Of a stretch of 64,000 nucleotides of DNA, positions 2,429 through 36,503 are shown one piece after another (the first letter of the stretch is position 1; each line of letters begins with the position of its first letter). A program made the position numbers and the translations under genes. The stretch lies in NCBI RefSeq assembly GCF_003018255.1, contig NZ_CP027440.1; one strand, written 5' to 3'. Below the pieces are notes generated by a model that did no database searches, was not told the origin of the DNA, and saw only the letters and a program-made list of their open reading frames with translations. This DNA comes from Escherichia coli. GTDB taxonomy: Bacteria > Pseudomonadota > Gammaproteobacteria > Enterobacterales > Enterobacteriaceae.

Positions 2429-4501
<2,073 letters not shown>

Positions 4502-9822: not shown

Positions 9823-9937
9823 ATGCTGGCATCGAATGCTGTAGAGGGAAAGTTCGCCTTAGCCATCATATCATAAAACAGACGCCGGAAATGACGACAG
9901 GGCCAGATGGCCCCGTCGACTTGTGAAAATATCGTCA

Positions 9938-10780: not shown

Positions 10781-10781
10781 G

Positions 10782-11773: not shown

Positions 11774-12276
11774 TGGTAATCCACCACAATTGTGGCACTG
11801 GCGTTAAATTCCGCTGCCGATAAGGTTGTACCACTCTGTTTCACCGGCACTGCTTCGAGTGCAGGGACGCCCGAGGAAAAATTAAACGGCAACCATGAAC
11901 CAGACGTTAAGTCGAGTGTTGAGTGATCACTACTTTTCTGAACCCGAATACCAAACCCTGAAATACCTGTGCTGATAACTGTTTCACCGTTGATCACAAC
12001 CGTTGTTGCCCGCATCTGTAAACGCAGGTCATCCATTGCCAGGTTGTTACAAACAAGCGAGTAATCAATGGGTTGTTTATAACCTACCCCATCGATCTTA
12101 TTGATGAATACATTACCAAACTCAACCGTCGCACCATTAACCGTGCAAGGAGGAGGGGCATCAACGAGCACTCGTAAACTCAAATTTACTGATTTACTCC
12201 CTGCAACTGCAAAGTCGCTACCAATACAACACATCAGTAACCATGTTCCCGCCCAGACTGAACAAGATCTTTTCAT
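11770..12276 (-). CDS. yfcR: Fimbrial minor subunit YfcR
   Basis: 168 aa ORF with signal peptide, C-terminal ...VDYQ pilin-like terminus. Confidence 0.75.
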   Translation of the reverse strand: MKRSCSVWAGTWLLMCCIGSDFAVAGSKSVNLSLRVLVDAPPPCTVNGATVEFGNVFINKIDGVGYKQPIDYSLVCNNLAMDDLRLQMRATTVVINGETVISTGISGFGIRVQKSSDHSTLDLTSGSWLPFNFSSGVPALEAVPVKQSGTTLSAAEFNASATIVVDYQ

Positions 12277-12292
12277 ACTTACTTCCCCGTCA

Positions 12293-13042
12293 TTAACCTT
12301 TGCGGCTCAGCTCTTCATCAACCTGACAACTGTTGCCGCTACAGGTGAAAAAGAGTGGCATCCGTGCGCCATAGTCGTTGACATAGGTCAGCACCGGCAC
12401 GCTAGCCATCTTCACCTTGAGCGGTGCGGAGGTTTTTGGCGACATCACTATCGGCGAGAAACCGTCTGCCGGATTGCCATTTTTTTGCGCGCTGGCATTA
12501 CTGAAAATGACGTAATACGGAGTAGGGTTATTGACGGTAAATTCCTGACCGTTACGGGTTAAGGTCACTTTATGCTGCCATGGGTTTTGCATGCTAGCTT
12601 TTTCCAGGGCTTTAGGTCGCCAGAAAAGTTTGATGCGTGTCTGCAGCGCAATTTGTAACGTATTGGCTTTGTTCGATTTCGGCGGAATTTCACGCACATT
12701 GAAATAAAATATCGATTCACGATCGGCAGGCAATTTATGGATATCTGGCAATCCCTGAATTTTCACCTGACCATTCATCATTGCATCAATGCGCTGTACG
12801 GGGGGCAATACTGCCAGCGGCGAACTAATCTTGACGCCCTTTTCATCTTCGATCCAGCTTTGTGCCAGATAAGGCTGTTTCGGGTCGTTATTACGCAGCG
12901 TGACGCTGATGGATTTATCGCTTTCATTAAAAATCAGGCGAGTACGATCGGGCGTTACTGACGCCAGAGCAGAAAAACTTACCGTTGCAGCCAGTAACGA
13001 CAGTACCGTTGCCAATGTTTTGACAGAGAGATGTTTAGTCAT
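12293..13042 (-). CDS. yfcS: Periplasmic fimbrial chaperone (PapD-like) YfcS
   Basis: 249 aa ORF with signal peptide and PapD-family features. Confidence 0.85.
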   Translation of the reverse strand: MTKHLSVKTLATVLSLLAATVSFSALASVTPDRTRLIFNESDKSISVTLRNNDPKQPYLAQSWIEDEKGVKISSPLAVLPPVQRIDAMMNGQVKIQGLPDIHKLPADRESIFYFNVREIPPKSNKANTLQIALQTRIKLFWRPKALEKASMQNPWQHKVTLTRNGQEFTVNNPTPYYVIFSNASAQKNGNPADGFSPIVMSPKTSAPLKVKMASVPVLTYVNDYGARMPLFFTCSGNSCQVDEELSRKG

Positions 13043-13061
13043 GGATCATTCCTTAATCACG

Positions 13062-15701: not shown

Positions 15702-15786
15702 CTACGTATCCATCCATGATTATTATAATTTAGTTATCTTTTATTTATAAACCCCATAACATTGCAGTTATGGGGGAACAGCATAA

Positions 15787-16353
15787 TTAGAGATATGTAA
15801 TCTGGAACGTCGTTAGCGTTTCAAACGGCGCTGGGGTTGGTGTTACCGCTGCAGTTTCACCTACTAACCAGGCTTTAAAGTTCAACGTTTGTTTCTGTTT
15901 GCCTTTTCCTGTTGAACTGTCCATCGCGATGTCCTGATCGATGCCTGCCCCCAGGTCATAACCAGTACCACGTTGGTCGCCAATCACCAGACTTACATTT
16001 GGAATTTCAGTTCCATTATCCATGTTAGACAGGGAATAGTTTTTTGAGTTGCCGGAGTACGGATTACCAGTGAATGTCGTGGTCATTGTCGTTTCAGTAT
16101 TGAAATTACAATCCTGTAAACGAATCTGGAAATCTTTAGGTGTGGTAGTCTTGCCACCGGTTAAAGAACCTGTACCAATGCTGCCCATATCCACTTCCAG
16201 TTTATGATCGTCAGGAACAATCGAGCACGGAGAGTCTTCAATTGTGCCGTAAAATCTCACTGTACCGTTGTTACCTGCGGCAACGACTGATGCTGAAGTC
16301 AGCGCCCCCATGAGCATTGCCGTGGCAACTGCTGCTTTTACAAACTTACTCAT
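15787..16353 (-). CDS. yfcV: Major fimbrial subunit YfcV
   Basis: 188 aa ORF with signal peptide, Cys pair, C-terminal ...FQITYL; first gene of operon. Confidence 0.8.
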   Translation of the reverse strand: MSKFVKAAVATAMLMGALTSASVVAAGNNGTVRFYGTIEDSPCSIVPDDHKLEVDMGSIGTGSLTGGKTTTPKDFQIRLQDCNFNTETTMTTTFTGNPYSGNSKNYSLSNMDNGTEIPNVSLVIGDQRGTGYDLGAGIDQDIAMDSSTGKGKQKQTLNFKAWLVGETAAVTPTPAPFETLTTFQITYL

Positions 16354-21992: not shown

Positions 21993-23333
21993 ATGAGCCA
22001 GAAAACCCTGTTTACAAAGTCTGCTCTCGCAGTCGCAGTGGCACTTATCTCCACCCAGGCCTGGTCGGCAGGCTTTCAGTTAAACGAATTTTCTTCCTCT
22101 GGCCTGGGCCGGGCTTATTCAGGGGAAGGTGCAATTGCCGATGATGCAGGTAACGTTAGCCGTAACCCCGCATTGATTACCATGTTTGACCGCCCGACAT
22201 TTTCTGCGGGTGCGGTTTATATTGATCCGGATGTAAATATCAGCGGAACGTCTCCGTCTGGTCGTAGCCTGAAAGCCGATAACATCGCGCCTACGGCATG
22301 GGTTCCGAACATGCACTTTGTTGCACCGATTAACGACCAATTTGGTTGGGGGGCTTCAATTACCTCTAACTATGGTCTGGCGACAGAGTTTAACGATACT
22401 TATGCAGGCGGTTCTGTCGGTGGTACCACCGACCTCGAAACCATGAACCTGAACTTAAGCGGTGCATATCGCTTAAATAATGCATGGAGCTTTGGTCTTG
22501 GTTTCAACGCCGTCTACGCTCGCGCGAAAATTGAACGTTTCGCAGGCGATCTGGGGCAACTGGTGGCTGGTCAGATTAGGCAATCTCCTGCTTGGCTGAC
22601 TCCTCAGGGGCAAGCATTAGCAGCTACCGCCAACGGCATCGACAGTAATACCAAAATCGCTCACCTGAACGGTAACCAGTGGGGCTTTGGCTGGAACGCC
22701 GGTATCCTGTATGAACTGGATAAAAACAACCGCTACGCATTGACCTACCGCTCTGAAGTGAAAATTGACTTCAAGGGTAACTACAGCAGCGATCTTAACC
22801 CGGCTTTTAATAACTACGGTTTGCCAATTCCTACCGCGACAGGTGGCGCAACGCAGTCGGGTTATCTGACGCTGAACCTGCCTGAAATGTGGGAAGTGTC
22901 GGGTTATAACCGTGTTGATCCGCAGTGGGCAATTCACTATAGCCTGGCTTACACCAGCTGGAGTCAGTTCCAGCAGCTGAAAGCGACCTCAACGAGTGGC
23001 GACACGCTGTTCCAGAAACATGAAGGCTTTAAAGATGCTTACCGCATCGCGTTGGGAACCACTTATTACTACGATGATAACTGGACCTTCCGTACCGGTA
23101 TCGCCTTTGATGACAGCCCAGTTCCGGCACAGAATCGTTCTATCTCCATTCCGGACCAGGACCGTTTCTGGCTGAGTGCAGGTACGACTTACGCATTTAA
23201 TAAAGATGCTTCAGTCGATGTTGGTGTTTCTTATATGCACGGTCAGAGCGTGAAAATTAACGAAGGCCCATACCAGTTCGAGTCTGAAGGTAAAGCCTGG
23301 CTGTTCGGTACTAACTTTAACTACGCGTTCTGA
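21993..23333 (+). CDS. fadL: Long-chain fatty acid outer membrane transporter FadL
   Basis: ORF 21987-23333; start at [21 protein letters not shown] (signal peptide); C-terminal ...FNYAF. Confidence 0.95.
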
Positions 23334-23343
23334 TAACGCGTTC

Positions 23344-23376
23344 GCTTAATAAGAAAAAAGGTGAGTTTTGCGACTC
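23344..23376. terminator. Bidirectional intrinsic terminator between convergent fadL and mlaA
   Basis: Perfect stem AGGTGAGT/ACTCACCT with 6-nt loop flanked by A-run upstream and T-run downstream. Confidence 0.65.
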
Positions 23377-23394
23377 ACCTTTTTTGTTTGTTTC

Positions 23395-24150
23395 TTATTC
23401 AGAATCGATATCTTTTAAATCATCCTGAATCGCTTGCGCGTTCGGATTTTCCTGCGGTTTGAGTTCGCCGCCATTAGCGATGAAATCATGACGCTGGAAG
23501 TACGCTTCGCGCACCATAATATAAGGATCGGACGACTGACGCAGCAGACCATCGGAATCCAACAACTGCGCACGAGTTTCTATCCCTTCAAGCGTCCATT
23601 TACCCACAGACATCGGCCAGGTCAGCCAGGAAAGAACCGGGTAAAGACCATCCGCCATATCACCACCGTCATCACGCAGCGTGAAGCTACCGTAGAACGG
23701 TAACTGAACGTATGGCCCATAACCCACACCATAATGACCAAGCGTACTACCGAAGCGGTGAGGTTCAGTCCGTTGCAGTTTCGGGTTCGCCATCCCTGCA
23801 ACATCAATAAAGCCGCCCATCCCCAAAATGGTGTTCAGGAAAAAGCGGGTAAAGTGGACCATCCCCTGATAAGGGTCGCCCTGCAAGAAGTAGTTAACCA
23901 TCACCGCAGGTTCTTCAAGGTTGCCAGTAAAGTTGCTCAAACCGTTACGCGCCGGTTGCGGAACATAATCACGCCAGGCGACAGCGACCGGTCGAACAAT
24001 ATACGGGTCTAATACATTGAAATTGAAGTTGTACATGGTGCGGTTGAACCCTTCTAGCGGGTCAGAACGCCCTTGCTGATCTGTACCGGAACTCGCACAC
24101 CCCACCAGAAGCGTAGTTCCCAGAGCAAGCGCCGACAGGCGAAGCTTCAT
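23395..24150 (-). CDS. mlaA: Outer-membrane lipoprotein MlaA (VacJ), phospholipid asymmetry maintenance
   Basis: 251 aa ORF with lipobox (LLVGC), recognised sequence. Confidence 0.93.
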   Translation of the reverse strand: MKLRLSALALGTTLLVGCASSGTDQQGRSDPLEGFNRTMYNFNFNVLDPYIVRPVAVAWRDYVPQPARNGLSNFTGNLEEPAVMVNYFLQGDPYQGMVHFTRFFLNTILGMGGFIDVAGMANPKLQRTEPHRFGSTLGHYGVGYGPYVQLPFYGSFTLRDDGGDMADGLYPVLSWLTWPMSVGKWTLEGIETRAQLLDSDGLLRQSSDPYIMVREAYFQRHDFIANGGELKPQENPNAQAIQDDLKDIDSE

Positions 24151-24443
24151 AAATGTCTCCCTGTTTTTTTATGGCTTATGCAGTTTGCCATCCATGACGG
24201 AACGATACCGTATCCGCCTGTTTAGGTGTGGGCGATTGTAACAGCACGTCAACTGATGTCCAGACGCCCTGATTTGCTGATTTGATCATAGCCTGGTAAT
24301 CGCCGCCCTGTAGGCTACTTGATTCTATAGAAACAGAAAAAGGCAAACGCAGCCTTTTCTACATTTTCAGAGTAACTCCCGCCAGTTGCGAGCAAAAAAG
24401 CCGCTACGCTTTAGCTATACGTGCTAATTCAAGAGAAGAGACC

Positions 24444-25376
24444 ATGGACAACGACAAAATTGATCAACACAGCGACGAAATTGAAGTTGAGAGCGAAGAA
24501 AAAGAGCGCGGCAAAACAATAGAAATAGATGAAGATCGACTCCCCTCCCGGGCGATGGCAATTCATGAGCATATCCGCCAGGATGGTGAAAAAGAGCTGG
24601 AACGCGACGCAATGGCACTACTGTGGTCAGCCATTGCGGCGGGTCTGTCGATGGGCGCTTCGCTACTGGCAAAAGGGATATTTCATGTCGAACTGGAAGG
24701 CGTGCCGGGCAGCTTCTTGCTGGAGAATCTCGGTTATACCTTTGGTTTTATTATCGTCATTATGGCCCGCCAGCAATTATTTACCGAAAACACCGTGACT
24801 GCGGTACTACCCGTCATGCAAAAACCGACAATGAGCAACGTTGGCTTACTTATGCGGTTATGGGGCGTCGTGCTGCTGGGTAATATTCTCGGGACAGGTA
24901 TTGCGGCGTGGGCATTTGAATATATGCCAATCTTCAATGAAGAAACTCGCGATGCATTTGTCAAAATCGGCATGGATGTGATGAAGAACACCCCCAGCGA
25001 GATGTTTGCCAACGCGATCATTTCCGGCTGGCTGATCGCCACTATGGTTTGGATGTTTCCTGCAGCGGGTGCGGCAAAGATTGTGGTGATTATATTGATG
25101 ACCTGGCTTATTGCCCTGGGTGACACCACTCACATCGTTGTCGGTTCTGTTGAAATCCTCTATCTGGTGTTTAACGGTACGCTGCACTGGAGCGATTTCA
25201 TCTGGCCCTTCGCACTACCTACTTTAGCGGGGAACATCTGCGGCGGCACCTTTATCTTCGCGTTAATGAGTCATGCACAGATCCGTAACGACATGAGCAA
25301 CAAGCGCAAAGCAGAAGCACGCCAAAAAGCAGAACGTGCGGAAAACATTAAGAAAAATGATAAAAACCCGGCATAA
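24444..25376 (+). CDS. yfdC: Formate/nitrite transporter family inner membrane protein YfdC
   Basis: 310 aa ORF, recognised sequence and synteny upstream of argW. Confidence 0.9.
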   Translation: MDNDKIDQHSDEIEVESEEKERGKTIEIDEDRLPSRAMAIHEHIRQDGEKELERDAMALLWSAIAAGLSMGASLLAKGIFHVELEGVPGSFLLENLGYTFGFIIVIMARQQLFTENTVTAVLPVMQKPTMSNVGLLMRLWGVVLLGNILGTGIAAWAFEYMPIFNEETRDAFVKIGMDVMKNTPSEMFANAIISGWLIATMVWMFPAAGAAKIVVIILMTWLIALGDTTHIVVGSVEILYLVFNGTLHWSDFIWPFALPTLAGNICGGTFIFALMSHAQIRNDMSNKRKAEARQKAERAENIKKNDKNPA

Positions 25377-25451: not shown

Positions 25452-25526
25452 GTCCTCTTAGTTAAATGGATATAACGAGCCCCTCCTAAGGGCTAATTGC
25501 AGGTTCGATTCCTGCAGGGGACACCA
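25452..25526 (+). tRNA. argW: tRNA-Arg (anticodon CCU)
   Basis: 75-nt sequence GTCCTCTTAGTTAAATGGATATAACGAGCCCCTCCTAAGGGCTAATTGCAGGTTCGATTCCTGCAGGGGACACCA; cloverleaf with CCT anticodon loop, T-loop GGTTCGATTCC. Confidence 0.95.
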
Positions 25527-25735
25527 GATACCCTTCAAACCAAATCTACCTTCACCCCGTAAAAGATGGGTTTGGCAGCACACTTGCCCTATATCTACTC
25601 ATTTTTACTGCAACAGGTTGAAATCTCAGCACTGTCAGAAAGCGCTGATGACTAAACAGCCCTGGGCCGGGCGATGTAACCATCATACAGAATCCTGATA
25701 GCGAAATATGGCGTGACTCGATACTTCACTCTGCA

Positions 25736-25888
25736 ATGCATTCCTTGATGAATTCGCAGGCCCGTGATACACGGGACACGTGGCTGAATGACGACAATGT
25801 CCTGGAAATCAGCGAACCGCGTATCCGGAGTACATTTGAGCGACTGTACCAGAACATGAATGAGGCGTTTGGATTAGGTGATTATTAG
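25736..25888 (+). other. Short unassigned ORF (50 aa) / possible gene remnant adjacent to argW
   Basis: Open frame with internal ATG 25736 ending TAG 25886-25888; frame is open back to 25652 and an out-of-frame ATG at 25648 precedes it, suggesting a degraded or frameshifted gene; below the 60 aa cutoff of the ORF track. Confidence 0.2.
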
Positions 25889-25967
25889 CAGGGGTAAGCA
25901 TTTTTGTATTATTATTTTCCGGTTGAGGGATATGGAGATATCGACAACAACCGGAAAAAGTTTACGT

Positions 25968-27215
25968 CTATATTGCTGAAGGTACAGGCGTTTCCATAAC
26001 TATTTGCTCGCGTTTTTTACTCAGGAAGAAAATGCCAAATAGCAACATCAGGCAGACAATACCCGAAATTGCGAAGAAAACTGTCTGGTAGCCTGCGTGG
26101 TCAAAGAGTATCCCAGTCGGCGTTGAAAGCAGCACAATCCCAAGCGAACTGGCAATTTGAAAACCAATCAGAAAGATCGTCGACGACAGGCGCTTATCAA
26201 AGTTTGCCACGCTGTATTTGAAGACGGATATGACACAAAGTGGAACCTCAATGGCATGTAACAGCTTCACTAATGAAATAATCCAGGGGTTAACGAACAG
26301 CGCGCAGGAAAGGATACGCAACGCCATAATCACAACACCGATAAGTAATGCATTTTTTGGCCCTACCCGATTCACAAAGAAAGGAATAATCGCCATGCAC
26401 AGCGCTTCGAGTACCACCTGGAATGAGTTGAGATAACCATACAGGCGCGTTCCTACATCGTGTGATTCGAATAAACCTGCATAAAAGACAGGAAAGAGTT
26501 GTTGATCAAAAATGTTATAGAAAGACCACGTCCCCACAATAAATATGACAAAAACCCAGAAGTTTCGATCCTTGAAAACTGCGATAAAATCCTCTTTTTT
26601 TACCCCTCCCGCATCCGCCGCTATGCACTGGTGATCCTTATCTTTAAAACGCATGTTGATCATCATAAATACAGCGCCAAATAGCGAGACCAACCAGAAG
26701 TTGATATGGGGACTGATACTAAAAAATATACCAGCAAAGAACGCGCCAATAGCATAGCCAAAAGATCCCCAGGCGCGCGCTGTTCCATATTCGAAATGAA
26801 AATTTCGCGCCATTTTTTCGGTGAAGCTGTCAAGCAAACCGCATCCCGCCAGATACCCCAGGCCAAAAAAGAGCGCCCCCAGAATTAGACCTACAGAAAA
26901 ATTGCTTTGCAGTAACGGTTCATAAACGTAAATCATAAACGGTCCGGTCAAGACCAGAATGAAACTCATACACCAGATGAGCGGTTTCTTCAGACCGAGT
27001 TTATCCTGAACGATGCCGTAGAACATCATAAATAGAATGCTGGTAAACTGGTTGACCGAATAAAGTGTACCTAATTCCGTCCCTGTTAATCCTAGATGTC
27101 CTTTCAGCCAAATAGCGTATAACGACCACCACAGCGACCAGGAAATAAAAAAGAGAAATGAGTAACTGGATGCAAAACGATAGTACGCATTTCTGAATGG
27201 AATATTCAGTGCCAT
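25968..27215 (-). CDS. cscB: Sucrose:H+ symporter (MFS, oligosaccharide/H+ symporter family)
   Basis: 415 aa ORF with 12-TM composition, recognised CscB sequence. Confidence 0.93.
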   Translation of the reverse strand: MALNIPFRNAYYRFASSYSFLFFISWSLWWSLYAIWLKGHLGLTGTELGTLYSVNQFTSILFMMFYGIVQDKLGLKKPLIWCMSFILVLTGPFMIYVYEPLLQSNFSVGLILGALFFGLGYLAGCGLLDSFTEKMARNFHFEYGTARAWGSFGYAIGAFFAGIFFSISPHINFWLVSLFGAVFMMINMRFKDKDHQCIAADAGGVKKEDFIAVFKDRNFWVFVIFIVGTWSFYNIFDQQLFPVFYAGLFESHDVGTRLYGYLNSFQVVLEALCMAIIPFFVNRVGPKNALLIGVVIMALRILSCALFVNPWIISLVKLLHAIEVPLCVISVFKYSVANFDKRLSSTIFLIGFQIASSLGIVLLSTPTGILFDHAGYQTVFFAISGIVCLMLLFGIFFLSKKREQIVMETPVPSAI

Positions 27216-27286
27216 AATTACCTGCCTGTCGTTAAAAAATTCATGTCCTATTTAGAGATAAGAGCGGCCTCGCCGTTTACTTCTCA

Positions 27287-28201
27287 CTATTCCAGTTCTT
27301 GTCGACATGGCAGCGCTGTCATCGCCCCTTTCGCCGTTACTGCAAGCGCTCCGCAACGTTGAGCGAGATCGATAATTCGTCGCATTTCTCTTTCATCTGT
27401 AGATAATCCCGTAGAGGACAGACCTGTGAGTAACCCGGCAACGAACGCATCTCCCGCCCCCGTGCTATCGACACAATTCACAGACATTCCAGCAAAATGG
27501 TGAACTTGTCCTCGATAACAGACCACCACCCCTTCTGCACCTTTAGTCACCAACAGCATGGCGATCTCATACTCTTTTGCCAGGGCGCATATATCCCAAT
27601 CGTTCTGTGTTTTTCCACTGATAAGTCGCCATTCTTCTTCCGAGAGCTTGACGACATCCGCCAGTTGTAGCGCCTGCCGCAAACACAAGCGGAGCAAATG
27701 CTCGTCTTGCCATAGATCTTCACGAATATTGGGATCGAAGCTGACAAAACCTCCGGCATGCCGGATCGCCGTCATCGCAGTAAATGCGCTGGTACGCGAA
27801 GGCTCGGCAGACAACGCAATTGAACAGAGATGTAACCATTCGCCATGTCGCCAGCAGGGCAAGTCTGTCGTCTCTAAAAAAAGATCGGCACTGGGGCGGA
27901 CCATAAACGTAAATGAACGTTCTCCTTGATCGTTCAGATCGACAAGCACCGTGGATGTCCGGTGCCATTCATCTTGCTTCAGATACGTGATATCGACACC
28001 CTCAGTTAGCAGCGTTCTTTGCATTAACGCACCAAAAGGATCATCACCGACCCGACCTATAAACCCACTTGTTCCGCCTAATCTGGCGATTCCCACCGCA
28101 ACGTTAGCTGGCGCGCCGCCAGGACAAGGTAGTAGCCGCCCGTCTGATTCTGGCAAGAGATCTACGACCGCATCCCCTAAAACCCATACTTTGGCTGACA
28201 T
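27287..28201 (-). CDS. cscK: Fructokinase (ROK/pfkB-family sugar kinase of csc regulon)
   Basis: 304 aa ORF with pfkB-family motifs (GG..N, DSTGAGDAF). Confidence 0.93.
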   Translation of the reverse strand: MSAKVWVLGDAVVDLLPESDGRLLPCPGGAPANVAVGIARLGGTSGFIGRVGDDPFGALMQRTLLTEGVDITYLKQDEWHRTSTVLVDLNDQGERSFTFMVRPSADLFLETTDLPCWRHGEWLHLCSIALSAEPSRTSAFTAMTAIRHAGGFVSFDPNIREDLWQDEHLLRLCLRQALQLADVVKLSEEEWRLISGKTQNDWDICALAKEYEIAMLLVTKGAEGVVVCYRGQVHHFAGMSVNCVDSTGAGDAFVAGLLTGLSSTGLSTDEREMRRIIDLAQRCGALAVTAKGAMTALPCRQELE

Positions 28202-28306
28202 TTTTTTCCCTTAAATTCATCTGACTTACGCATAGTGATAAACCTCTTTTTCGCAAAATCGTCATGGATTTACTAAAACATGCATATTCGATCACAAAAC
28301 GTCATA

Positions 28307-28318
28307 GTTAACGTTAAC
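28307..28318. promoter_or_regulatory. Perfect 12-bp palindrome GTTAACGTTAAC, candidate CscR operator (site 1)
   Basis: Read directly in the cscK-cscA divergent intergenic region; identical copy 64 bp downstream. Confidence 0.5.
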
Positions 28319-28370
28319 ATTTGTGATATTCATCGCATTTATGAAAGTAAGGGACTTTATTTTTATAAAA

Positions 28371-28382
28371 GTTAACGTTAAC
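28371..28382. promoter_or_regulatory. Perfect 12-bp palindrome GTTAACGTTAAC, candidate CscR operator (site 2)
   Basis: Identical to site 1, about 35 bp upstream of cscA start. Confidence 0.5.
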
Positions 28383-28416
28383 AATTCACCCAATTTGCTT
28401 AACCAGGATGATAAAA

Positions 28417-29850
28417 ATGACGCAATCTCGATTACATGCGGCGCAAAACGCACTAGCAAAACTTCACGAGCGCCGAGGTAACACTTTCTATCCCCATTTT
28501 CACCTCGCGCCTCCCGCCGGGTGGATGAACGATCCAAACGGCCTAATCTGGTTTAACGATCGTTATCACGCGTTTTATCAACATCACCCGATGAGCGAAC
28601 ACTGGGGGCCAATGCACTGGGGACATGCCACCAGCGACGATATGATCCACTGGCAGCATGAGCCTATTGCGCTAGCGCCAGGAGACGAGAATGACAAAGA
28701 CGGGTGTTTTTCAGGTAGTGCTGTCGATGACAATGGTGTCCTCTCACTTATCTACACCGGACACGTCTGGCTCGATGGTGCAGGTAATGACGATGCAATT
28801 CGCGAAGTACAATGTCTGGCTACCAGTCGGGATGGTATTCATTTCGAGAAACAGGGTGTGATCCTCACTCCACCAGAAGGCATCATGCACTTCCGCGATC
28901 CTAAAGTGTGGCGTGAAGCCGACACATGGTGGATGGTAGTCGGGGCGAAAGATCCAGGCAACACGGGGCAGATCCTGCTTTATCGCGGCAGTTCATTGCG
29001 TGAATGGACTTTCGATCGCGTACTGGCCCACGCTGATGCGGGTGAAAGCTATATGTGGGAATGTCCGGACTTTTTCAGCCTTGGCGATCAGCATTATCTG
29101 ATGTTTTCCCCGCAGGGAATGAATGCCGAGGGATACAGTTACCGAAATCGCTTTCAAAGTGGCGTAATACCCGGAATGTGGTCGCCAGGACGACTTTTTG
29201 CACAATCCGGGCATTTTACTGAACTTGATAGCGGGCATGACTTTTATGCACCACAAAGCTTTTTAGCGAAGGATGGTCGGCGTATTGTTATCGGCTGGAT
29301 GGATATGTGGGAATCGCCAATGCCCTCAAAACGTGAAGGCTGGGCAGGCTGCATGACGCTGGCGCGCGAGCTATCAGAGAGCAATGGCAAACTTCTACAA
29401 CGCCCGGTACACGAAGCTGAGTCGTTACGCCAGCAGCATCAATCTATCTCTCCCCGCACAATCAGCAATAAATATGTTTTGCAGGAAAACGCGCAAGCAG
29501 TTGAGATTCAGCTGCAGTGGGCGTTGAAGAACAGTGATGCCGAACATTACGGATTACAGCTCGGCACTGGAATGCGGCTGTATATTGATAACCAATCTGA
29601 GCGACTTGTTTTGTGGCGGTATTACCCACACGAGAATTTAGATGGCTACCGTAGTATTCCCCTCCCGCAGGGTGACATGCTCGCCCTAAGGATATTTATC
29701 GATACATCATCCGTGGAAGTATTTATTAACGACGGGGAGGCGGTGATGAGTAGCCGAATATATCCGCAGCCAGAAGAACGGGAACTGTCGCTCTATGCCT
29801 CCCACGGAGTGGCTGTGCTGCAACATGGAGCACTCTGGCAACTGGGTTAA
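28417..29850 (+). CDS. cscA: Sucrose-6-phosphate hydrolase / invertase (GH32)
   Basis: ORF 28408-29850; start placed at MTQSRLHAAQN; GH32 N-terminal motif WMNDPNG present. Confidence 0.93.
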   Translation: MTQSRLHAAQNALAKLHERRGNTFYPHFHLAPPAGWMNDPNGLIWFNDRYHAFYQHHPMSEHWGPMHWGHATSDDMIHWQHEPIALAPGDENDKDGCFSGSAVDDNGVLSLIYTGHVWLDGAGNDDAIREVQCLATSRDGIHFEKQGVILTPPEGIMHFRDPKVWREADTWWMVVGAKDPGNTGQILLYRGSSLREWTFDRVLAHADAGESYMWECPDFFSLGDQHYLMFSPQGMNAEGYSYRNRFQSGVIPGMWSPGRLFAQSGHFTELDSGHDFYAPQSFLAKDGRRIVIGWMDMWESPMPSKREGWAGCMTLARELSESNGKLLQRPVHEAESLRQQHQSISPRTISNKYVLQENAQAVEIQLQWALKNSDAEHYGLQLGTGMRLYIDNQSERLVLWRYYPHENLDGYRSIPLPQGDMLALRIFIDTSSVEVFINDGEAVMSSRIYPQPEERELSLYASHGVAVLQHGALWQLG

Positions 29851-29857
29851 CATAATA

Positions 29858-30853
29858 TCAGGTGGAACAACGGATCAACAGCGGGCAAGGGATCCGCGTC
29901 ACTCTTCCCCCTTCACGATCTTCAATAATATGCAATGCAGCTTCCCGCCCGATAATGTCATGTGGAAGCTGAATTGTGGTCAGCGGCGGTAAAAACAGAT
30001 GCCCGACGCCAACCAGATTATCAAAGCCCATTACGGCGACATCCTGCGGGATACGTACCCCCTTCGCCAGGAGAACCTGATAAGCGACAAAGGCTGCGCG
30101 ATCGTTACCACATATCAGAACATCAAAATCTGGTTTGCCCGATTTGAAGTGGTCATTGAGTAAACTTGCGAGATCGGTGTAGTGATCATCACCTGTTGCC
30201 ATGTGAAATTGTTTCACCTCAGCCAGATCTCGTCCAGCATCACGCCAGGCCTGCTCAAATCCCTGCCGACGATACCCTGTTGCCAACGCACTTTCCGGTA
30301 GCCAGAAGCATAACGGTTGACGATAGCCCGCCGCGAGCAAATGCTGTGTTGATTCATATTGTGCAGTGTAATCATCAGGGATATAACTGGGTAACGCTGG
30401 GTCATCCGCCACACAGTTCGCCAATACAATATTTTCACCATACAGAGACTCAGGCAGCGAGATATGTCGCAGCCCCATTGTAGTATAGATAATGCCATCC
30501 GGACGGTGGGCAAGCAGCTGACGTGCCGCGCGGGCAGCGTCATCTTCAGAAAAAATATTGATTAAAAAACTATTCCAGCCAAACTCGCTGGCGGTTTGCT
30601 CAATGGCAAGCAGAATATCAACAGAGAAAGGAGTGGTGGCCGTGTCCTGCGCCAGCACGGCGAGAGTCGACGGCTTACGTCCTTGAGCGCGCATCTTACG
30701 GGCGGAAAGATCAGGAACATAATTCAGGGTCTGGATTGCCTGCAATACGCGGTCACGCGTTGCAGGACGCACAGATTCTGCATTATGCATCACCCGGGAG
30801 ACTGTCATCATCGACACTCCCGCCAGGCGTGCGACATCCTTTAATGAAGCCAT
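29858..30853 (-). CDS. cscR: LacI-family sucrose operon repressor
   Basis: Six-frame ORF is 397 aa; start placed at internal Met giving 331 aa MASLKDVARLAGVSMMTVSRV (LacI-type HTH at the N-terminus). Confidence 0.9.
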   Translation of the reverse strand: MASLKDVARLAGVSMMTVSRVMHNAESVRPATRDRVLQAIQTLNYVPDLSARKMRAQGRKPSTLAVLAQDTATTPFSVDILLAIEQTASEFGWNSFLINIFSEDDAARAARQLLAHRPDGIIYTTMGLRHISLPESLYGENIVLANCVADDPALPSYIPDDYTAQYESTQHLLAAGYRQPLCFWLPESALATGYRRQGFEQAWRDAGRDLAEVKQFHMATGDDHYTDLASLLNDHFKSGKPDFDVLICGNDRAAFVAYQVLLAKGVRIPQDVAVMGFDNLVGVGHLFLPPLTTIQLPHDIIGREAALHIIEDREGGRVTRIPCPLLIRCST

Positions 30854-31083
30854 ACCCAAGCCGTTTGCCGTAAAACGGGCACTGTAGCAGAAACAGACGT
30901 CACTGGCGAGATCCAACGATATTCTCAACGCCCTATCACCCGACACGGCAATACAATAAAAAATAACAATAATTCCCGGACAATTGTACCCAATTCCGCC
31001 TCTGTTCTCGCCAACGAGTAACCATGTAGGCAAGTAGGTAAAACATGCCAACTGGCATCGCCAACCTGGAGAAGAAAATATAA

Positions 31084-31314
31084 ATATGGATCATTGTGCT
31101 GCCGCTGTATCCCGACATCAGTCCGGAAATTATTGCGATTGCTATCGGTTCAGGTGCGATTGGCTGCACGATCGTTACGGACTCGCTTTTCTGGCTGGTG
31201 AAGCAATATTGCGGCGCTACGCTCAATGAAACATTTAAATACTATACGACAGCGACATTTATCGCTTCAGTCGTCGCTCTGGCGGGCACATTCCTGCTGT
31301 CATTTATCATCTAA
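31084..31314 (+). pseudogene. dsdX: 3' remnant of D-serine permease gene dsdX (GntP family), truncated at the csc cassette boundary
   Basis: Open frame of about 76 codons ending 18 bp before dsdA; hydrophobic C-terminal TM segment consistent with DsdX C-terminus; no full-length permease ORF upstream. Confidence 0.75.
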
Positions 31315-31331
31315 GCGCAAAGAGACGTACT

Positions 31332-32663
31332 ATGGAAAACGCTAAAATGAACTCGCTCATCGCCCAGTATCCGTTGGTAAAGGATCTGGTTGCTCTTAAA
31401 GAAACCACCTGGTTTAATCCTGGCACGACCTCATTGGCTGAAGGTTTACCTTATGTTGGCCTGACCGAACAGGATGTTCAGGACGCCCATGCGCGCTTAT
31501 CCCGTTTTGCACCCTATCTGGCAAAAGCATTTCCTGAAACTGCTGCTACTGGGGGGATTATTGAATCAGAACTGGTTGCCATTCCGGCTATGCAAAAACG
31601 GCTGGAAAAGGAATATCAACAACCGATCAGCGGGCAACTGCTACTGAAAAAAGATAGCCATTTGCCCATTTCCGGCTCCATAAAAGCACGCGGCGGGATT
31701 TATGAAGTCCTGGCACATGCAGAAAAACTGGCTCTGGAAGCGGGGTTGCTGACGCTTGAAGATGACTACAGCAAACTGCTTTCTCCGGAGTTTAAACAGT
31801 TCTTTAGTCAATACAGCATTGCTGTGGGCTCAACCGGAAATCTGGGGTTATCAATCGGCATTATGAGCGCCCGCATTGGCTTTAAGGTGACAGTACATAT
31901 GTCTGCTGATGCCCGGGCATGGAAAAAAGCGAAACTGCGCAGCCATGGCGTTACGGTCGTGGAATATGAGCAAGATTATGGTGTTGCAGTCGAGGAAGGA
32001 CGTAAAGCAGCGCAATCTGACCCGAACTGTTTCTTTATTGATGACGAGAATTCCCGCACGTTGTTCCTTGGGTATTCCGTCGCTGGCCAGCGTCTTAAAG
32101 CGCAATTTGCCGAGCAAGGTCGTATTGTCGATGCTGATAACCCTCTGTTTGTCTATCTGCCGTGTGGTGTTGGCGGTGGTCCTGGTGGCGTCGCATTCGG
32201 GCTTAAACTGGCATTTGGCGATCATGTTCACTGCTTTTTTGCCGAACCAACGCACTCCCCTTGTATGCTGTTAGGCGTCCATACAGGATTACACGATCAG
32301 ATTTCTGTTCAGGATATTGGTATCGATAACCTTACCGCAGCGGATGGCCTTGCAGTTGGTCGCGCATCAGGCTTTGTCGGGCGGGCAATGGAGCGTTTAC
32401 TGGATGGCTTCTATACCCTTAGCGATCAAACCATGTATGACATGCTTGGCTGGCTGACGCAGGAAGAAGGTATTCGTCTTGAACCTTCGGCACTGGCGGG
32501 TATGGCCGGACCTCAGCGCGTGTGTGCATCAGTAAGTTACCAACAGATGCACGGTTTCAGCGCAGAACAACTGCATAATGCCACTCATCTGGTGTGGGCG
32601 ACGGGAGGTGGAATGGTGCCGGAAGAAGAGATGGAGCAATATCTGGCAAAAGGCCGTTCATAA
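31332..32663 (+). CDS. dsdA: D-serine ammonia-lyase (D-serine dehydratase)
   Basis: 443 aa [22 protein letters not shown]..., PLP-lysine region SGSIKARGG. Confidence 0.95.
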
Positions 32664-32767
32664 CGTTTCAACGCAGCATCGCCATCCTTTCCCTGGGTGA
32701 GCGATGCTGCCGATGGCGCAGACTTAAGATCCCCGGTCTTACCTGCTATAATTCTCTCTTTATACCA

Positions 32768-34306
32768 TCACCCAACGCCTTTCGCTGTAAACGGCGGTTT
32801 CGCAAACCAAACCAATACCGTAAGTAAGATAAAAGCAATAGCCGCCATACGGAAAATCTCATTTGCAGAAATTGAAAGTGACTGCTGAGTTATTTCATTA
32901 TTAATTTCATTAAGAACTCCTGAAAGCGAACCATAGTATTTATCCATAATTTGTGACGATGAATTAAATACGGGGTTAAATTGATCGATGGTTGCTGTCA
33001 ACTGACTATGGTGTAACGATTCGCGTCGTCCCCACAGCGTCATTGTCAACGACGTACCAACTGATCCTGACAAGGTACGAAAAAAATTACTCATACTCGA
33101 GGCATTGGCAAATTTATTATCTGGCAACCCTGAAAACGAAATCGTTGTTAAGGGTAAAAAGAAACAGGCAACGGCGAATCCCTGGAAAAACTGTGGCAAA
33201 ATGATGCCTGTAAAATCAATCGTTGGCATAAATGTCACAGAACGCCAGTAATAGCAAACCGCATACATCAAAAAACTAAATGTCACCAACAACCGCATAT
33301 CAATTTTGTTGCCATAACGTCCTATCAAAGGTGATATTAATAGCGGCATGATGCCGATGGGCGCATAGGCAAGTCCGGCCCATATCGCATTATACCCCAT
33401 CGTTTCCTGGAGTAACTGCGGCATAAGGACTATCGCCCCAGAGTAAAATAAATACGCGCATGTGATACTCACAATACCAATGGTGAAATTACGGGACTTA
33501 AACAAACTGAGATCAAGAATCGGATTCTCTGAGGTCGACTCCCAAATGACTAAAGAAATCAGAGAAATAACTGACACTACTGTTAGTATTATTATTGTAC
33601 TCGAGTTGAACCAATCCAGATCGCGCCCTTTATCAAGCATTATCTGCAAGCCACCAACACCGAGCACTAACAGGGTCAGTCCTGGTAGATTCATTTTGAC
33701 CGGTGAAGTCTCAGTTTCTCTTCCTTTAAGTAAGGTTAAGCATAATGTCAGAACGATAATCCCCATAGGGACATTGATTAAAAATATCCAACCCCAGCTA
33801 AAGTTATCGCAAATATAGCCGCCCAATATCGGCCCACATATCGGAGCGATAATTACGGTCATTGACCATAATGCCAAAGCAAATGTTCTTTTTTCTGGCG
33901 GATAATTCCTTAATAATAAACTCTGTGACAGTGGAATTAACGGCCCCGCCATTAAGCCCTGAACGACTCTAAAAAATATCAGCACATCAAGATTGGTCGA
34001 TAGGCTACACATTAATGAAGATAGTGAAAAAAAGGTTACTGAAAGTAAAAATAATCTTAATTCGCCTATTCTTTGTGCCAGCCTGCCGGTAACAGGGATC
34101 GCAATGGCATTTGCTACGCCAAACGAAGTGATAACCCAGGTGCCTTCGTCTGTTGATGCTCCCAGAAAGCCAGATATTGTCGGTATTGCGACGTTAGAAA
34201 TAGTGGAATCCAACATTTGCATAAACGTCGCTAAGGACAATGCAATAGTAACGCACCATAACGTCCCACCGGTTAATGGTGCCGGAGTTGATTTAGTGAT
34301 TGCCAT
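32768..34306 (-). CDS. emrY: MFS multidrug efflux pump EmrY (EmrB paralogue)
   Basis: 512 aa 14-TM-type ORF, recognised sequence. Confidence 0.93.
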   Translation of the reverse strand: MAITKSTPAPLTGGTLWCVTIALSLATFMQMLDSTISNVAIPTISGFLGASTDEGTWVITSFGVANAIAIPVTGRLAQRIGELRLFLLSVTFFSLSSLMCSLSTNLDVLIFFRVVQGLMAGPLIPLSQSLLLRNYPPEKRTFALALWSMTVIIAPICGPILGGYICDNFSWGWIFLINVPMGIIVLTLCLTLLKGRETETSPVKMNLPGLTLLVLGVGGLQIMLDKGRDLDWFNSSTIIILTVVSVISLISLVIWESTSENPILDLSLFKSRNFTIGIVSITCAYLFYSGAIVLMPQLLQETMGYNAIWAGLAYAPIGIMPLLISPLIGRYGNKIDMRLLVTFSFLMYAVCYYWRSVTFMPTIDFTGIILPQFFQGFAVACFFLPLTTISFSGLPDNKFANASSMSNFFRTLSGSVGTSLTMTLWGRRESLHHSQLTATIDQFNPVFNSSSQIMDKYYGSLSGVLNEINNEITQQSLSISANEIFRMAAIAFILLTVLVWFAKPPFTAKGVG

Positions 34307-35469
34307 TAAAGTTGTCCATTATGCGAAATAATGTTGCTAATTTCTTTTTCTATCGGAGTAGTATCGATAACTAAAGCCTTACTGGTATAAGCAGGCATGG
34401 AGGTCACGGTTGAAGCCAGCTCAGGCATCTCAGCAATGTCTTCGTCCTTCGTATCAATAGTTGCAGTCATCGATAAACCAATACGTAAGGGATGTTCCAT
34501 GAGTTCTTTTGGATCAAGAGAAACTTCAACCGGTACACGCTGAACGATTTTGATCCAGTTCCCTGTCGCATTTTGTGCAGGTAATAAGGAGAACGCATTG
34601 CCGGTTCCCATATTGATTCCTGTCACCCGACCATGAAACACAACATTTTCACCATAAAGATCGCTGATAATATTGACCGATTGACCAATCCGTACATCCG
34701 TGAGTTGTGTTTCTTTAAAGTTGGCATTAACCCACATTTGACGTGCCGGTACGACAGCCATTAACGATTGTCCGGGACTCACTGTTTCGCCGACCTGAAC
34801 ACTTCGCTGGGCAATATAGCCGGTAACAGGACTCTTAATATCCGTACGTTTAAGCGCTAACCAGGCTTCTTTGGTTGCATCTGCCGCTTCAACGACTTGT
34901 GGCTGACGGTTTAATGGTGTGTTCATTACTAAAGCTTTATTCGCTTTATAAGCCTGGATAGCGGCATTCAATGCCGCTTTGCTACTTATTAACGTATCTT
35001 TGGTATGCTCCAGCGTTTCTTTTGAAATAACCCCCTGCTTCGCTAAAGGCACACGACGGTTATAATCTTCTAAAGATTGTTGATACTGAATACGTGCTGA
35101 AGCGACTTCGGCACTGTATTGTTTATCCTGTAAGTACAGTTTATTCGTTTGCCGAACAATATTTGCCAGATTATTTTTAGCTTTATTGAGTGCGATAGTG
35201 GCATCAGTCTTATCCAGTGAGACTAAAATGTCACCCTGTCGAACGTAGTTCGTATCTTTATGATTAACGACAGTGACGCTGCCTGAAACTTGTGCAGAAA
35301 TTGGATCTGCATTCCCCGTGACATAGGCGTCATCTGTACTAATCATGTCTTCTAATTCCATTGACCAATAGGCATAGGCACCTGAAAACGCAATAAATAA
35401 AACTACCGCCAATAAAGAAAAGTATTTTCTTCTGTTAGAATGTTTTTTATTTGAATTAATCTGTTCCAC
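34306..35469 (-). CDS. emrK: Membrane fusion protein EmrK (EmrA paralogue)
   Basis: 387 aa ORF with N-terminal TM anchor and coiled-coil region; stop/start overlap with emrY. Confidence 0.93.
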   Translation of the reverse strand: MEQINSNKKHSNRRKYFSLLAVVLFIAFSGAYAYWSMELEDMISTDDAYVTGNADPISAQVSGSVTVVNHKDTNYVRQGDILVSLDKTDATIALNKAKNNLANIVRQTNKLYLQDKQYSAEVASARIQYQQSLEDYNRRVPLAKQGVISKETLEHTKDTLISSKAALNAAIQAYKANKALVMNTPLNRQPQVVEAADATKEAWLALKRTDIKSPVTGYIAQRSVQVGETVSPGQSLMAVVPARQMWVNANFKETQLTDVRIGQSVNIISDLYGENVVFHGRVTGINMGTGNAFSLLPAQNATGNWIKIVQRVPVEVSLDPKELMEHPLRIGLSMTATIDTKDEDIAEMPELASTVTSMPAYTSKALVIDTTPIEKEISNIISHNGQL

Positions 35470-35642
35470 TTTTATCTCTCATTTCGCATAGATGAAATTT
35501 ATGAATTGAATGAAAAGAGTATTCATTCTTCATATCAAACACAGTGCATGTGTTGCACATTATCCCAGGAACGTTGGAGGCCTAATTTAAATGAGGTGCA
35601 AAAAAAACAACAGAGGACTAAACCGTGGCTTTTGCAATACAA

Positions 35643-35660
35643 TTCTTACGCATGTAGGAT
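35643..35660. promoter_or_regulatory. 18-bp EvgA-box-like inverted repeat TTCTTACG-CA-TGTAGGAT in emrK-evgA divergent region
   Basis: Matches the TTCYTACA-NN-TGTARGAA pattern shared by three other sites in this window. Confidence 0.5.
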
Positions 35661-35884
35661 TAGTGAGAAGACTTATAGTGCTAATGTGAAACTATAAATC
35701 ATCGGTACAATCCCTGATTTTATTGTTGACATTTCATTTATGCCGACTATTTATATGGTATACTTGTTGAATTATCTTAAAGGAAGCTCAAATTTTCTTA
35801 TTTTGATTGAGAAAATGAGATGATGCCTTATGTCTGTATTACTACAGGGAGAAGGGAAATGCTTCATTGCAAAGGGAATAATCT

Positions 35885-36499
35885 ATGAACGCAATAATTA
35901 TTGATGACCATCCTCTTGCTATCGCAGCAATTCGTAATTTATTGATCAAAAACGATATTGAAATCTTAGCGGAGTTGACTGAAGGGGGAAGTGCCGTTCA
36001 GCGGGTGGAAACACTTAAACCTGATATCGTCATCATTGATGTCGATATCCCCGGAGTTAACGGTATCCAGGTGTTAGAAACGCTGAGGAAGCGCCAATAT
36101 AGCGGAATTATTATTATCGTCTCCGCTAAAAATGACCATTTTTACGGGAAACATTGTGCTGATGCTGGCGCTAATGGTTTCGTGAGTAAAAAAGAAGGCA
36201 TGAACAATATCATTGCAGCTATTGAAGCTGCAAAAAATGGCTACTGCTATTTCCCCTTCTCTCTCAACCGGTTTGTTGGAAGTTTAACGTCCGACCAGCA
36301 AAAACTCGACTCCTTATCGAAACAAGAAATTAGTGTCATGCGGTATATTCTTGATGGCAAGGATAATAATGACATTGCTGAAAAAATGTTCATCAGCAAC
36401 AAAACTGTCAGCACTTATAAAAGTCGCTTGATGGAAAAATTAGAATGCAAATCACTGATGGATCTTTACACATTCGCACAACGTAACAAAATCGGCTAA
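35885..36499 (+). CDS. evgA: Response regulator EvgA (NarL/FixJ family)
   Basis: 204 aa ORF, receiver domain plus LuxR-type HTH. Confidence 0.95.
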   Translation: MNAIIIDDHPLAIAAIRNLLIKNDIEILAELTEGGSAVQRVETLKPDIVIIDVDIPGVNGIQVLETLRKRQYSGIIIIVSAKNDHFYGKHCADAGANGFVSKKEGMNNIIAAIEAAKNGYCYFPFSLNRFVGSLTSDQQKLDSLSKQEISVMRYILDGKDNNDIAEKMFISNKTVSTYKSRLMEKLECKSLMDLYTFAQRNKIG

Positions 36500-36503
36500 C
36501 CAC

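Follow-up and report, generated by a model that had tools for sequence, protein, structure and literature searches.

Between argW and dsdA, the stretch of Escherichia coli DNA analyzed here (‘the window’; 64,000 nucleotides of contig NZ_CP027440.1) carries a complete set of csc genes for sucrose catabolism. The left anchor of the locus is argW, the gene for tRNA-Arg(CCU) (positions 25452–25526, plus strand, anticodon CCT), which was called by ARAGORN and scores 63.4 bits with the Rfam tRNA model, the sole match in an Rfam scan of the whole window. Next come a 441-bp spacer (25527–25967, plus strand), cscB (25968–27215, minus strand, 415 amino acids), cscK (27287–28201, minus strand, 304 amino acids), a divergent cscKB/cscA control region defined from the sequence and a repeat finder (28202–28416), cscA (28417–29850, plus strand, 477 amino acids) and cscR (29858–30853, minus strand, 331 amino acids). 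The upstream region of cscR, which reaches to the right-hand boundary of the foreign DNA (30854–31096), lacks homology to K-12. It is followed by a 3′ stub of dsdX (31097–31314, plus strand), a pseudogene that blastn and tblastn comparisons with K-12 dsdX equate to codons 374 through 445 of 445, and by dsdA (31332–32663, plus strand), whose product is a D-serine ammonia-lyase. There are no internal stop codons in cscB, cscK, cscA, cscR or dsdA. The gene order and orientation given in the original prediction, as well as its description of a dsdX stub followed by an intact dsdA, are thus borne out by profile matches, gene calls and the K-12 alignment.

Alignment with K-12 MG1655 had been proposed as the means of defining the exact breakpoints, and blastn places these at 25526/25527 and 31096/31097. 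Colinearity with K-12 stops at the final base of argW and restarts at K-12 position 2478967, within dsdX, leaving a segment of 5570 bp (25527–31096) that has no K-12 counterpart. The interval originally proposed (25527–31331) does contain the csc segment, but it extends too far to the right, as the foreign DNA stops at 31096 and nucleotides 31097 through 31331 are native DNA comprising the dsdX 3′ end and the dsdX-dsdA intergenic region. Likewise, the csc genes do follow argW, but not directly, as the 441-bp spacer precedes cscB. The flanks resemble those of K-12, with 98.3% identity from yfdC to argW and 97.4–98.2% identity through the dsdX 3′ end, dsdA and emrY. However, K-12 holds the 10.2-kb prophage CPS-53 along with pawZ, an attR copy of argW, and also dsdC and a complete dsdX, as had been claimed, whereas the window has none of these. 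DNA and protein searches of the whole 64-kb window found no match to CPS-53, intS, dsdC, the 5′ part of dsdX or yfdF of K-12. Therefore, no full dsdC-dsdX, which would have contradicted the proposed arrangement, is present in the window, and the cassette occupies the argW-dsdA position with dsdC lost and dsdX truncated.

All four csc open reading frames are full length and identical to RefSeq proteins. CscB matches the TIGR00882 model for oligosaccharide MFS transporters with 594.6 bits (cutoff of 220), is an exact member of the UniRef cluster named CSCB_ECOLX, and aligns with LacY structures (E=3e-63) such that the equivalents of LacY residues E269, R302, H322 and E325 are kept. It is therefore predicted to be an intact sucrose:H+ symporter of the LacY-type oligosaccharide MFS group. 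CscK is identical to WP_001274890.1 and matches the NF006957 fructokinase equivalog with 505.9 bits (cutoff of 450). Its gene is located 71 bp upstream of cscB in the same orientation, and we predict an intact PfkB-family fructokinase that is co-transcribed with the permease. The divergently oriented cscA gene is predicted to encode an intact cytoplasmic GH32 invertase (sucrose hydrolase), as evident from a TIGR01322 (scrB_fam) score of 478.1 bits (cutoff of 356.4), from the GH32 motifs WMNDPNG, RDP and ECP at residues 36, 160 and 215, and from a best solved relative, 7vco, at E=4e-174. Finally, CscR has LacI-family matches and is identical to WP_024196199.1, and an orthologue carries the name CscR in RefSeq strain E5. 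The cscR gene is convergent with cscA, their stop codons lying 7 bp apart, and it is predicted to encode an intact LacI-family repressor of the csc genes. No PTS component was found among the window genes.

The control region between cscK and cscA contains two copies of the 12-bp palindrome GTTAACGTTAAC, at 28307–28318 and 28371–28382, which are candidate operators for CscR. Between them, at 28322–28337, lies a CRP-like site, TGTGAtattcaTCGCA, with the pattern TGTGA-N6-TCGCA. These predicted sites match the two 12-bp inverted-repeat operators and the CRP site described previously (Jahreis 2002, as summarised in PMC11251922). The operator pair is located beside csc-like genes in 74 of 103 matches across species. 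A consensus promoter scan of the cassette revealed no convincing sigma-70 site, but as it gave fewer matches than shuffled sequence, this result is uninformative.

If these components function as described for strains EC3132, W and EDL933, sucrose would be imported together with a proton by CscB, cleaved in the cytoplasm to glucose and fructose by CscA, and the fructose would be phosphorylated by CscK. The divergent cscKB and cscA promoters would be repressed by CscR through the two operators until sucrose is plentiful, and cAMP-CRP would add catabolite control. The phenotype predicted from these assignments is slow, CscR-repressed growth that requires a high sucrose concentration. It could be argued instead that the cassette is silent or defective and that the strain is sucrose-negative, like Shigella and some csc-positive E. 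coli. Among csc-positive isolates that lack scr, 5 of 29 fail to grow on sucrose, and four of these have no obvious genetic defect, while csc loci in Shigella are disrupted by IS elements (PMC11251922). In addition, the O157:H7 assembly TR01 carries a stop at codon 26 of cscB, and an intact CscR holds expression down at low sucrose. However, in the window every csc reading frame is full length, CscB is identical to its UniRef namesake, the catalytic residues of CscA and the coupling residues of CscB are kept, and the operators and CRP-like site are intact. The dN/dS values of 0.06–0.19 for the csc genes also indicate that function is maintained across lineages. We therefore consider a defective cassette to be unlikely.

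The stub of dsdX informs on the order of events at this site. It consists of 72 codons, is annotated by PGAP as ‘incomplete; missing N-terminus’, and retains the sequence upstream of dsdA. Because this stub is present, a dsdCXA locus must have come first. The opposite order, with csc ancestral here and dsdC-dsdX a later insertion in K-12-like strains, might be entertained given that the two states are about equal in frequency and that csc is also found in L034, an Escherichia genome serving as a GTDB species representative, with somewhat diverged Csc proteins (92–96% identical to those of the window). However, a 72-codon 3′ fragment that has neither promoter nor start and keeps the reading frame of K-12 dsdX must derive from a gene that was once complete, and the stub is decaying further by deletions in strain F11 and in L034. 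This reading is effectively refuted by the stub.

Downstream of the stub, DsdA matches the D-serine ammonia-lyase equivalog TIGR02035 with 811.8 bits, above the curated cutoff, and is intact, its 443 amino acids including one additional C-terminal serine relative to K-12. In the window, dsdA stands without the activator DsdC and without the transporter DsdX, such that only dsdA and 72 dsdX codons remain of the dsdCXA tolerance locus. From this gene content, no growth on D-serine is predicted, and the strain should also be sensitive to D-serine if the rest of its genome holds no further copy of dsdCXA. The csc arrangement has been described as exclusive of D-serine use (PMC11251922, PMC13054288, PMC4366372, PMC3032704), and dsdA of EHEC is silent without DsdC (PMC7486766). 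The dN/dS for dsdA is 0.05–0.12, and it is 0.05–0.10 between csc-positive lineages in which the dS of the cassettes has reached 0.03–0.17. Such purifying selection in csc-positive genomes fits poorly with a fully silent gene, unless recombination reintroduces dsd-positive alleles. One tentative and rather doubtful idea is that dsdA in csc-type genomes is more than a silent relic, and is selected under DsdC-independent control that gives low-level D-serine detoxification coupled to sucrose availability. Such control could come from an internal promoter in the stub or from transcription entering from the csc side. Alternatively, frequent recombination from dsd-positive strains, seen as SNP mosaics, refreshes the gene.

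The arrangement in the window is an ordinary one for the species. The same cscR-dsdX junction was found in 2661 (49%) of 5426 complete E. coli genomes, and 2771 (51%) carry the state in which dsdC adjoins the dsdX 5′ region. The two states are nearly mutually exclusive and almost complementary, and in csc-free genomes the match to the junction query starts precisely at its base 101, corresponding to window position 31097. An alternative right junction with 40 more bp of dsdX was found in only one of the 5426 genomes, the O157:H7 assembly TR01, and is taken as a singleton or an assembly artefact. Over the cassette region, identity to most genomes is 99.5%, and identity to JNE112863 reaches 99.9%. 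Between lineages, the csc genes differ with dS values of up to 0.17. Together with their low dN/dS, this divergence points to an old allele that is exchanged by homologous recombination. The SNPs around the cassette are clustered and mosaic, and the junction is likewise found in L034.

The same sample bears on the proposal that the cassette stands in place of both a prophage and dsdC/dsdX. The second part holds, as dsdC and the 5′ 84% of dsdX have been replaced. Prophage occupancy, in contrast, is independent of the csc state. The argW att site is empty in the window, but argW is joined directly to the csc spacer in only 1470 genomes, versus the 2661 with the csc-dsdX junction, and an insert at argW is also present in ~45% of csc-positive genomes. 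In strain F11, for example, a lambdoid prophage ending in torI lies between argW and the csc spacer.

The spacer itself harbors what is left of a DUF4942 gene, a decayed internal piece (approximately 25593–25888), which corresponds to about residues 38–151 of a 281-amino-acid protein and carries a frameshift and stops. PGAP calls a 60-amino-acid open reading frame at 25706–25888, which we take to be probably z3622 of O157:H7 EDL933, judging only by its position upstream of cscB. Homology of the spacer to full-length DUF4942 genes is weak (72–74% nucleotide identity over query bases 144–345 only), and tblastn gives 47% identity to a DUF4942 protein of strain Nissle across residues 76–151. The full-length gene follows cbeA/cbtA at the far end of a CP4-like island. 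The spacer is present in 2644 of the 5426 genomes, where the number of places it occupies has a median of one and a maximum of two, and it always accompanies csc.

These features invite the suggestion that the cassette arrived recently as a mobile island, either integrated at the argW att site by an integrase or carried by a phage or plasmid. The cassette adjoins a tRNA gene that serves as a phage attachment site, its spacer holds the relic of a gene characteristic of CP4-like islands, and it appears in four phage records and four ‘plasmid’ records. However, a search with the last 10–20 nucleotides of argW found no duplicate of its 3′ end in the window comparable to the pawZ attR of K-12, and neither an intS homologue nor any other integrase is present there, such that both the integrase and the far-boundary tRNA repeat expected of a tRNA-linked island or prophage are missing. 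Apart from the operator pair and chance matches, there are also no direct or inverted repeats flanking 25527–31096. The ‘plasmid’ records with the whole cassette measure 0.37–4.9 Mb, and the one that was inspected (CP137936.1, 365 kb) has the chromosomal context fadL-mlaA-yfdC...dsdA-emrY. Of the phage records, ON470594.1 was inspected. In this P22-like (Lederbergvirus) record, the sequence continues beyond the excisionase into the cassette, which is located at the end of the record, and the remaining three phage records have the cassette at the record end as well. Neither near-identical cassettes elsewhere in the chromosome or on genuine plasmids, nor excision or circularisation of 25527–31096, was seen. 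Furthermore, divergence of the cassette between lineages is at least that of the flanking core genes, and one junction is common to 49% of genomes. Recent mobile acquisition is therefore highly improbable.

We favor, with a probability of about 95%, the interpretation that the segment is the chromosomal csc regulon for non-PTS sucrose catabolism in its usual argW-dsdA position, established by one ancestral replacement and maintained afterwards as an old two-state polymorphism. In an ancestor bearing dsdCXA, a single illegitimate replacement would have exchanged the DNA from the base after argW to codon 373 of dsdX for a 5.57-kb block, taking out dsdC, the dsdXA promoter and most of dsdX. Both the singularity of this event and its direction are inferred. 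Since then, the csc and dsdCXA alleles would have persisted side by side in the species, with homologous recombination through the conserved flanks, rather than mobile-element machinery, accounting for their exchange.

Replacement in one step leaves two parts of the segment unaccounted for, which are the DUF4942 remnant and a 40-bp block at its right end (31057–31096). The latter has no K-12 homology by blastn or in the junction alignment, a short-word blast for its source among the sequences compared here was empty, and the possibility that it is an inverted dsdX segment was rejected by short-word blast comparison.

Comparisons with characterized loci place the window among known csc systems. 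The csc regulon of EC3132 and W (Bockmann 1992; Jahreis 2002; PMC3032704) matches the window in its four genes, including their order and orientation, in its pair of 12-bp operators and its CRP site, and in its placement between argW and a truncated dsdX, and the window CscB is identical to CSCB_ECOLX. Strain W carries a lambdoid prophage remnant at argW (PMC3032704) where the window has an empty att site, but there is otherwise no substantive difference, as the remaining ones are allelic SNPs only. In the EDL933-type arrangement of O157:H7, argW-z3622-cscBKAR-‘dsdX-dsdA (PMC7486766, PMC4366372), the spacer is 96.6% and the cassette genes are 98.5–99.1% identical to those of the window, and the right junction and silent-dsdA configuration are the same. 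However, O157:H7 genomes have extra DNA between argW and the spacer that is absent from the window.

More distant systems differ in transport or location. The scr (PTS) regulon of Klebsiella, pUR400 and E. coli B2 lineages (PMC11251922) likewise serves sucrose catabolism and, like csc, includes a LacI-type repressor along with a fructokinase and a GH32 hydrolase, but it imports sucrose by a PTS enzyme II and a porin and hydrolyzes sucrose-6-phosphate, whereas the window encodes an MFS symporter. It also resides elsewhere in the genome and supports fast growth (PMC11251922). Loci similar to csc in Pluralibacter gergoviae, Tatumella, Rosenbergiella and Citrobacter amalonaticus have the operator pair with the same 76-nt span, and the P. 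gergoviae locus (L023) has the same cscB-cscK / cscA / cscR architecture with proteins that are 65–73% identical. Unlike the window, these loci of other Enterobacterales are not beside argW or dsdA and lack the DUF4942 remnant, and in most other genera the transporter is only ~40% identical to CscB.

The csc cassette is the main accessory segment of the window, and nothing about it is new. The csc/dsd arrangement was reportedly already known to Moritz and Welch in 2006. Its description in the original prediction as a known, strain-variable arrangement agrees with its occurrence in about half of completely sequenced E. coli and with published accounts (Jahreis 2002; PMC11251922; PMC7486766; PMC3032704; PMC4366372; PMC13054288). 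The importance of the finding lies solely in strain typing, in that the csc/dsd state at argW predicts a slow sucrose-positive, D-serine-negative metabolism. According to the literature, the same state is associated with whether a lifestyle is gut-restricted or instead urinary or extra-intestinal, as well as with carriage of the LEE (PMC4366372, PMC7486766, PMC13054288).

The window covers the yfcJ-mntH stretch of the E. coli chromosome, and all 64 kb are colinear with strain JNE112863 (NZ_AP045072.1) at 99.68% identity. The tRNA-Arg(CCU) gene argW (25452-25526, + strand), on which ARAGORN and Rfam agree, is followed by four intact open reading frames: cscB (25968-27215, -; 415 aa), cscK (27287-28201, -; 304 aa), cscA (28417-29850, +; 477 aa) and cscR (29858-30853, -; 331 aa), after which come a dsdX fragment and dsdA (31332-32663, +). 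CscB, CscK, CscA and DsdA score above the curated NCBIfam cut-offs for oligosaccharide MFS transporters, the fructokinase equivalog (NF006957), the scrB/GH32 family and the D-serine ammonia-lyase equivalog, respectively, and CscR matches general LacI-family models only. RefSeq annotates the same gene set in near-identical genomes, with the labels cscB, cscK, cscA and cscR in strain E5. All four Csc proteins of JNE112863 are identical to those of the window, and the UniRef entry CSCB_ECOLX is the exact CscB sequence. The GH32 motifs WMNDPNG, RDP and EC are present in CscA, and the equivalents of LacY E269, R302, H322 and E325 are conserved in CscB, as evident from alignment with LacY structures. 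In RefSeq/PGAP, the usual name of CscK is 'aminoimidazole riboside kinase', whereas the current NCBIfam equivalog is a fructokinase; this mismatch is an inconsistency of annotation, not of biology.

Alignment with K-12 MG1655 confirms that the csc genes lie between argW and dsdA, where the original prediction had placed them. Colinearity with K-12 ends at position 25526, the final base of argW, and restarts at 31097 (K-12 position 2478967). Therefore, the segment that has no K-12 counterpart spans 25527-31096, or 5570 bp. Because the restart falls at dsdX codon 374 of 445, the stub retains 72 codons, and an in-frame TAA is located just 5′ of it. The same interval of K-12 holds the CPS-53 prophage (intS to torI plus pawZ, the 15-bp attR copy), dsdC and a complete dsdX. 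None of these yields a DNA or protein match anywhere in the 64-kb window, which agrees with the claim that a full dsdC-dsdX is missing.

A 200-bp probe for the right junction is matched in full in 2661 (49%) of 5426 complete E. coli genomes from RefSeq, and in every other genome the first matching base is exactly the equivalent of 31097. The 5′ segment of K-12 dsdC-dsdX is present in 2771 of the 5426 (51%); the csc-junction and dsdC-dsdX states are close to complementary. A full match to the left-junction probe is found in only 1470 genomes, compared with 2661 for the right, and therefore roughly 45% of the csc-positive genomes carry an insert at argW. In strain F11, a lambdoid prophage resides at argW and its attR abuts the same csc spacer. 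Since such inserts occur in part of the csc-positive genomes, prophage occupancy is independent of the csc/dsd replacement. The statement that the cassette stands in place of a prophage is the one point of the original prediction to be adjusted: the window has no CPS-53, but occupancy of argW by prophages is separate from the csc/dsd exchange.

Every testable defining feature of a known strain-variable arrangement is present, consistent with the earlier view that this is not a new system. Jahreis in 2002 and Moritz and Welch in 2006 reportedly described the csc arrangement seen here. The argW-csc-dsdA order is already known, and half of the species has it. It is restated in several later accounts (PMC3032704, PMC4366372, PMC7486766, PMC11251922, PMC13054288).

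The 441-bp spacer that separates argW from cscB holds a decayed, frameshifted internal remnant of a DUF4942 gene (25593-25888, roughly residues 38-151 of 281). Residues 76-151 of the 281-aa protein are 47% identical to the spacer, and the match to residues 38-70 is weaker and out of frame. CP4-like islands carry full-length copies of this gene at their distal end, following cbeA/cbtA. The spacer is found in 2644 of the 5426 genomes, with a median of one location in each, and because this count approximates the number of csc-positive genomes, the spacer belongs to the cassette. The remnant is a constant component of the csc spacer, present in essentially all csc-positive genomes, and it hints that an argW-linked island was once beside or around csc. 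A sequence search for the source of the rightmost 40 bp of the foreign segment (31057-31096) detected none. In O157:H7 strain TR01, authentic dsdX sequence occupies the positions of this block, and this variant junction is unique to TR01 (1 of 5426 genomes).

Neither an integrase nor a duplicate of the argW 3′ end is present in the window, and no terminal repeats were found flanking 25527-31096. Carriage by plasmids is unlikely: the 'plasmid' records with a complete cassette are 0.37-4.9 Mb in size, and the one inspected (CP137936.1, locus L010) has the chromosomal fadL...emrY context. Carriage by phages is likewise unlikely, as the cassette lies at the record end in phage matches, and the P22-like (Lederbergvirus) record inspected (ON470594.1, locus L009) runs past the excisionase into the cassette. 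Of the PLSDB 'plasmid' records that contain csc, several are in fact chromosomal, either complete or as fragments, and some 'phage' entries in public databases, for P22-like prophages of the argW type, have the csc cassette of the host at one end.

Divergence of the csc genes from lineage to lineage amounts to dS values of 0.03-0.17, with dN/dS values of 0.06-0.19, and equals or exceeds that of the flanking dsdA (dS 0.06-0.08). A genome that GTDB uses as a species representative (L034, titled E. coli) shares the csc-dsdA junction, and its Csc proteins show 92-96% identity to those of the window. SNPs relative to near relatives fall in blocks around the cassette: 60 differences from E5 lie within 32000-34000 (dsdA 3′-emrY), with the adjacent cassette nearly identical, and 25 from JNE112863 lie within 22500-24500 (fadL-mlaA region). 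These blocks resemble mosaics produced by recombination around the hotspot, and 'recombination hotspot' as used in the literature implies homologous shuffling. We propose that a single, old event of illegitimate replacement, in an ancestor that had dsdCXA, gave rise to the csc state; the dsdX stub fixes this direction. Thereafter, the cassette would have been inherited and shuffled by homologous recombination.

The flanks of the cassette have additional features. In K-12, yfdF separates fadL from mlaA; the window lacks this gene, its fadL-mlaA gap being just 61 bp (23334-23394), but some other csc-positive records (e.g. CP137936.1) have it. The dsdA product is 443 aa and ends ...KGRS (final codon 32661-32663), compared with 442 aa and ...KGR in K-12, E5, F11 and O157, and 724 contigs on record carry exactly this allele. 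The emrK-evgA intergenic region and evgA start (35000-36500) have a G+C content of 35-40%, below all of the csc cassette (42-54%). According to the annotation of the closest genome, a seven-gene chaperone-usher fimbrial operon of the yfcO-yfcV type occupies 9936-16351 on the - strand.

The palindrome GTTAACGTTAAC occurs twice in the cscK-cscA intergenic region (28307-28318 and 28371-28382) and brackets a CRP-like TGTGA-N6-TCGCA (28322-28337), in agreement with the csc operators and CRP site defined by Jahreis et al. (summarised in PMC11251922). When one genome per species is scanned for exact copies of the pair GTTAACGTTAAC...GTTAACGTTAAC, 103 matches result (loci L011-L113; e.g. L025, L047, L073, and L023 of Pluralibacter gergoviae at 3804-3879), mostly with a 76-nt span, where by our own arithmetic far fewer than one would be expected by chance. 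CscA-, CscB-, CscK- or CscR-like genes adjoin the pair in 74 of the 103, across many Enterobacterales, with Yersinia, Serratia, Rahnella, Proteus, Tatumella, Rosenbergiella, Pluralibacter and others represented. The P. gergoviae locus has the same four-gene architecture as the window, with proteins 65-73% identical, whereas for most other genera the identity between CscB and the local transporter is only about 40%. The operator pair is more widely spread than the nucleotide-BLAST-based distribution in PMC11251922, and the verdict on the window is unchanged.

According to the literature, sucrose is imported by CscB through H+ symport and hydrolysed in the cytoplasm, and the fructose is phosphorylated, under CscR repression and CRP control (PMC11251922, PMC3032704). 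For this strain, these functions are predicted from sequence integrity. Growth of csc-only isolates on sucrose is slow or absent (PMC11251922), and in EHEC a dsdA without DsdC is silent and D-serine is toxic, unless deletions place dsdA under cscAp or z3622p (PMC7486766). Following this literature, and subject to a second dsdCXA or scr locus that may reside elsewhere in the genome, the phenotype predicted from the 64-kb window is slow, concentration-dependent use of sucrose and no use of D-serine.
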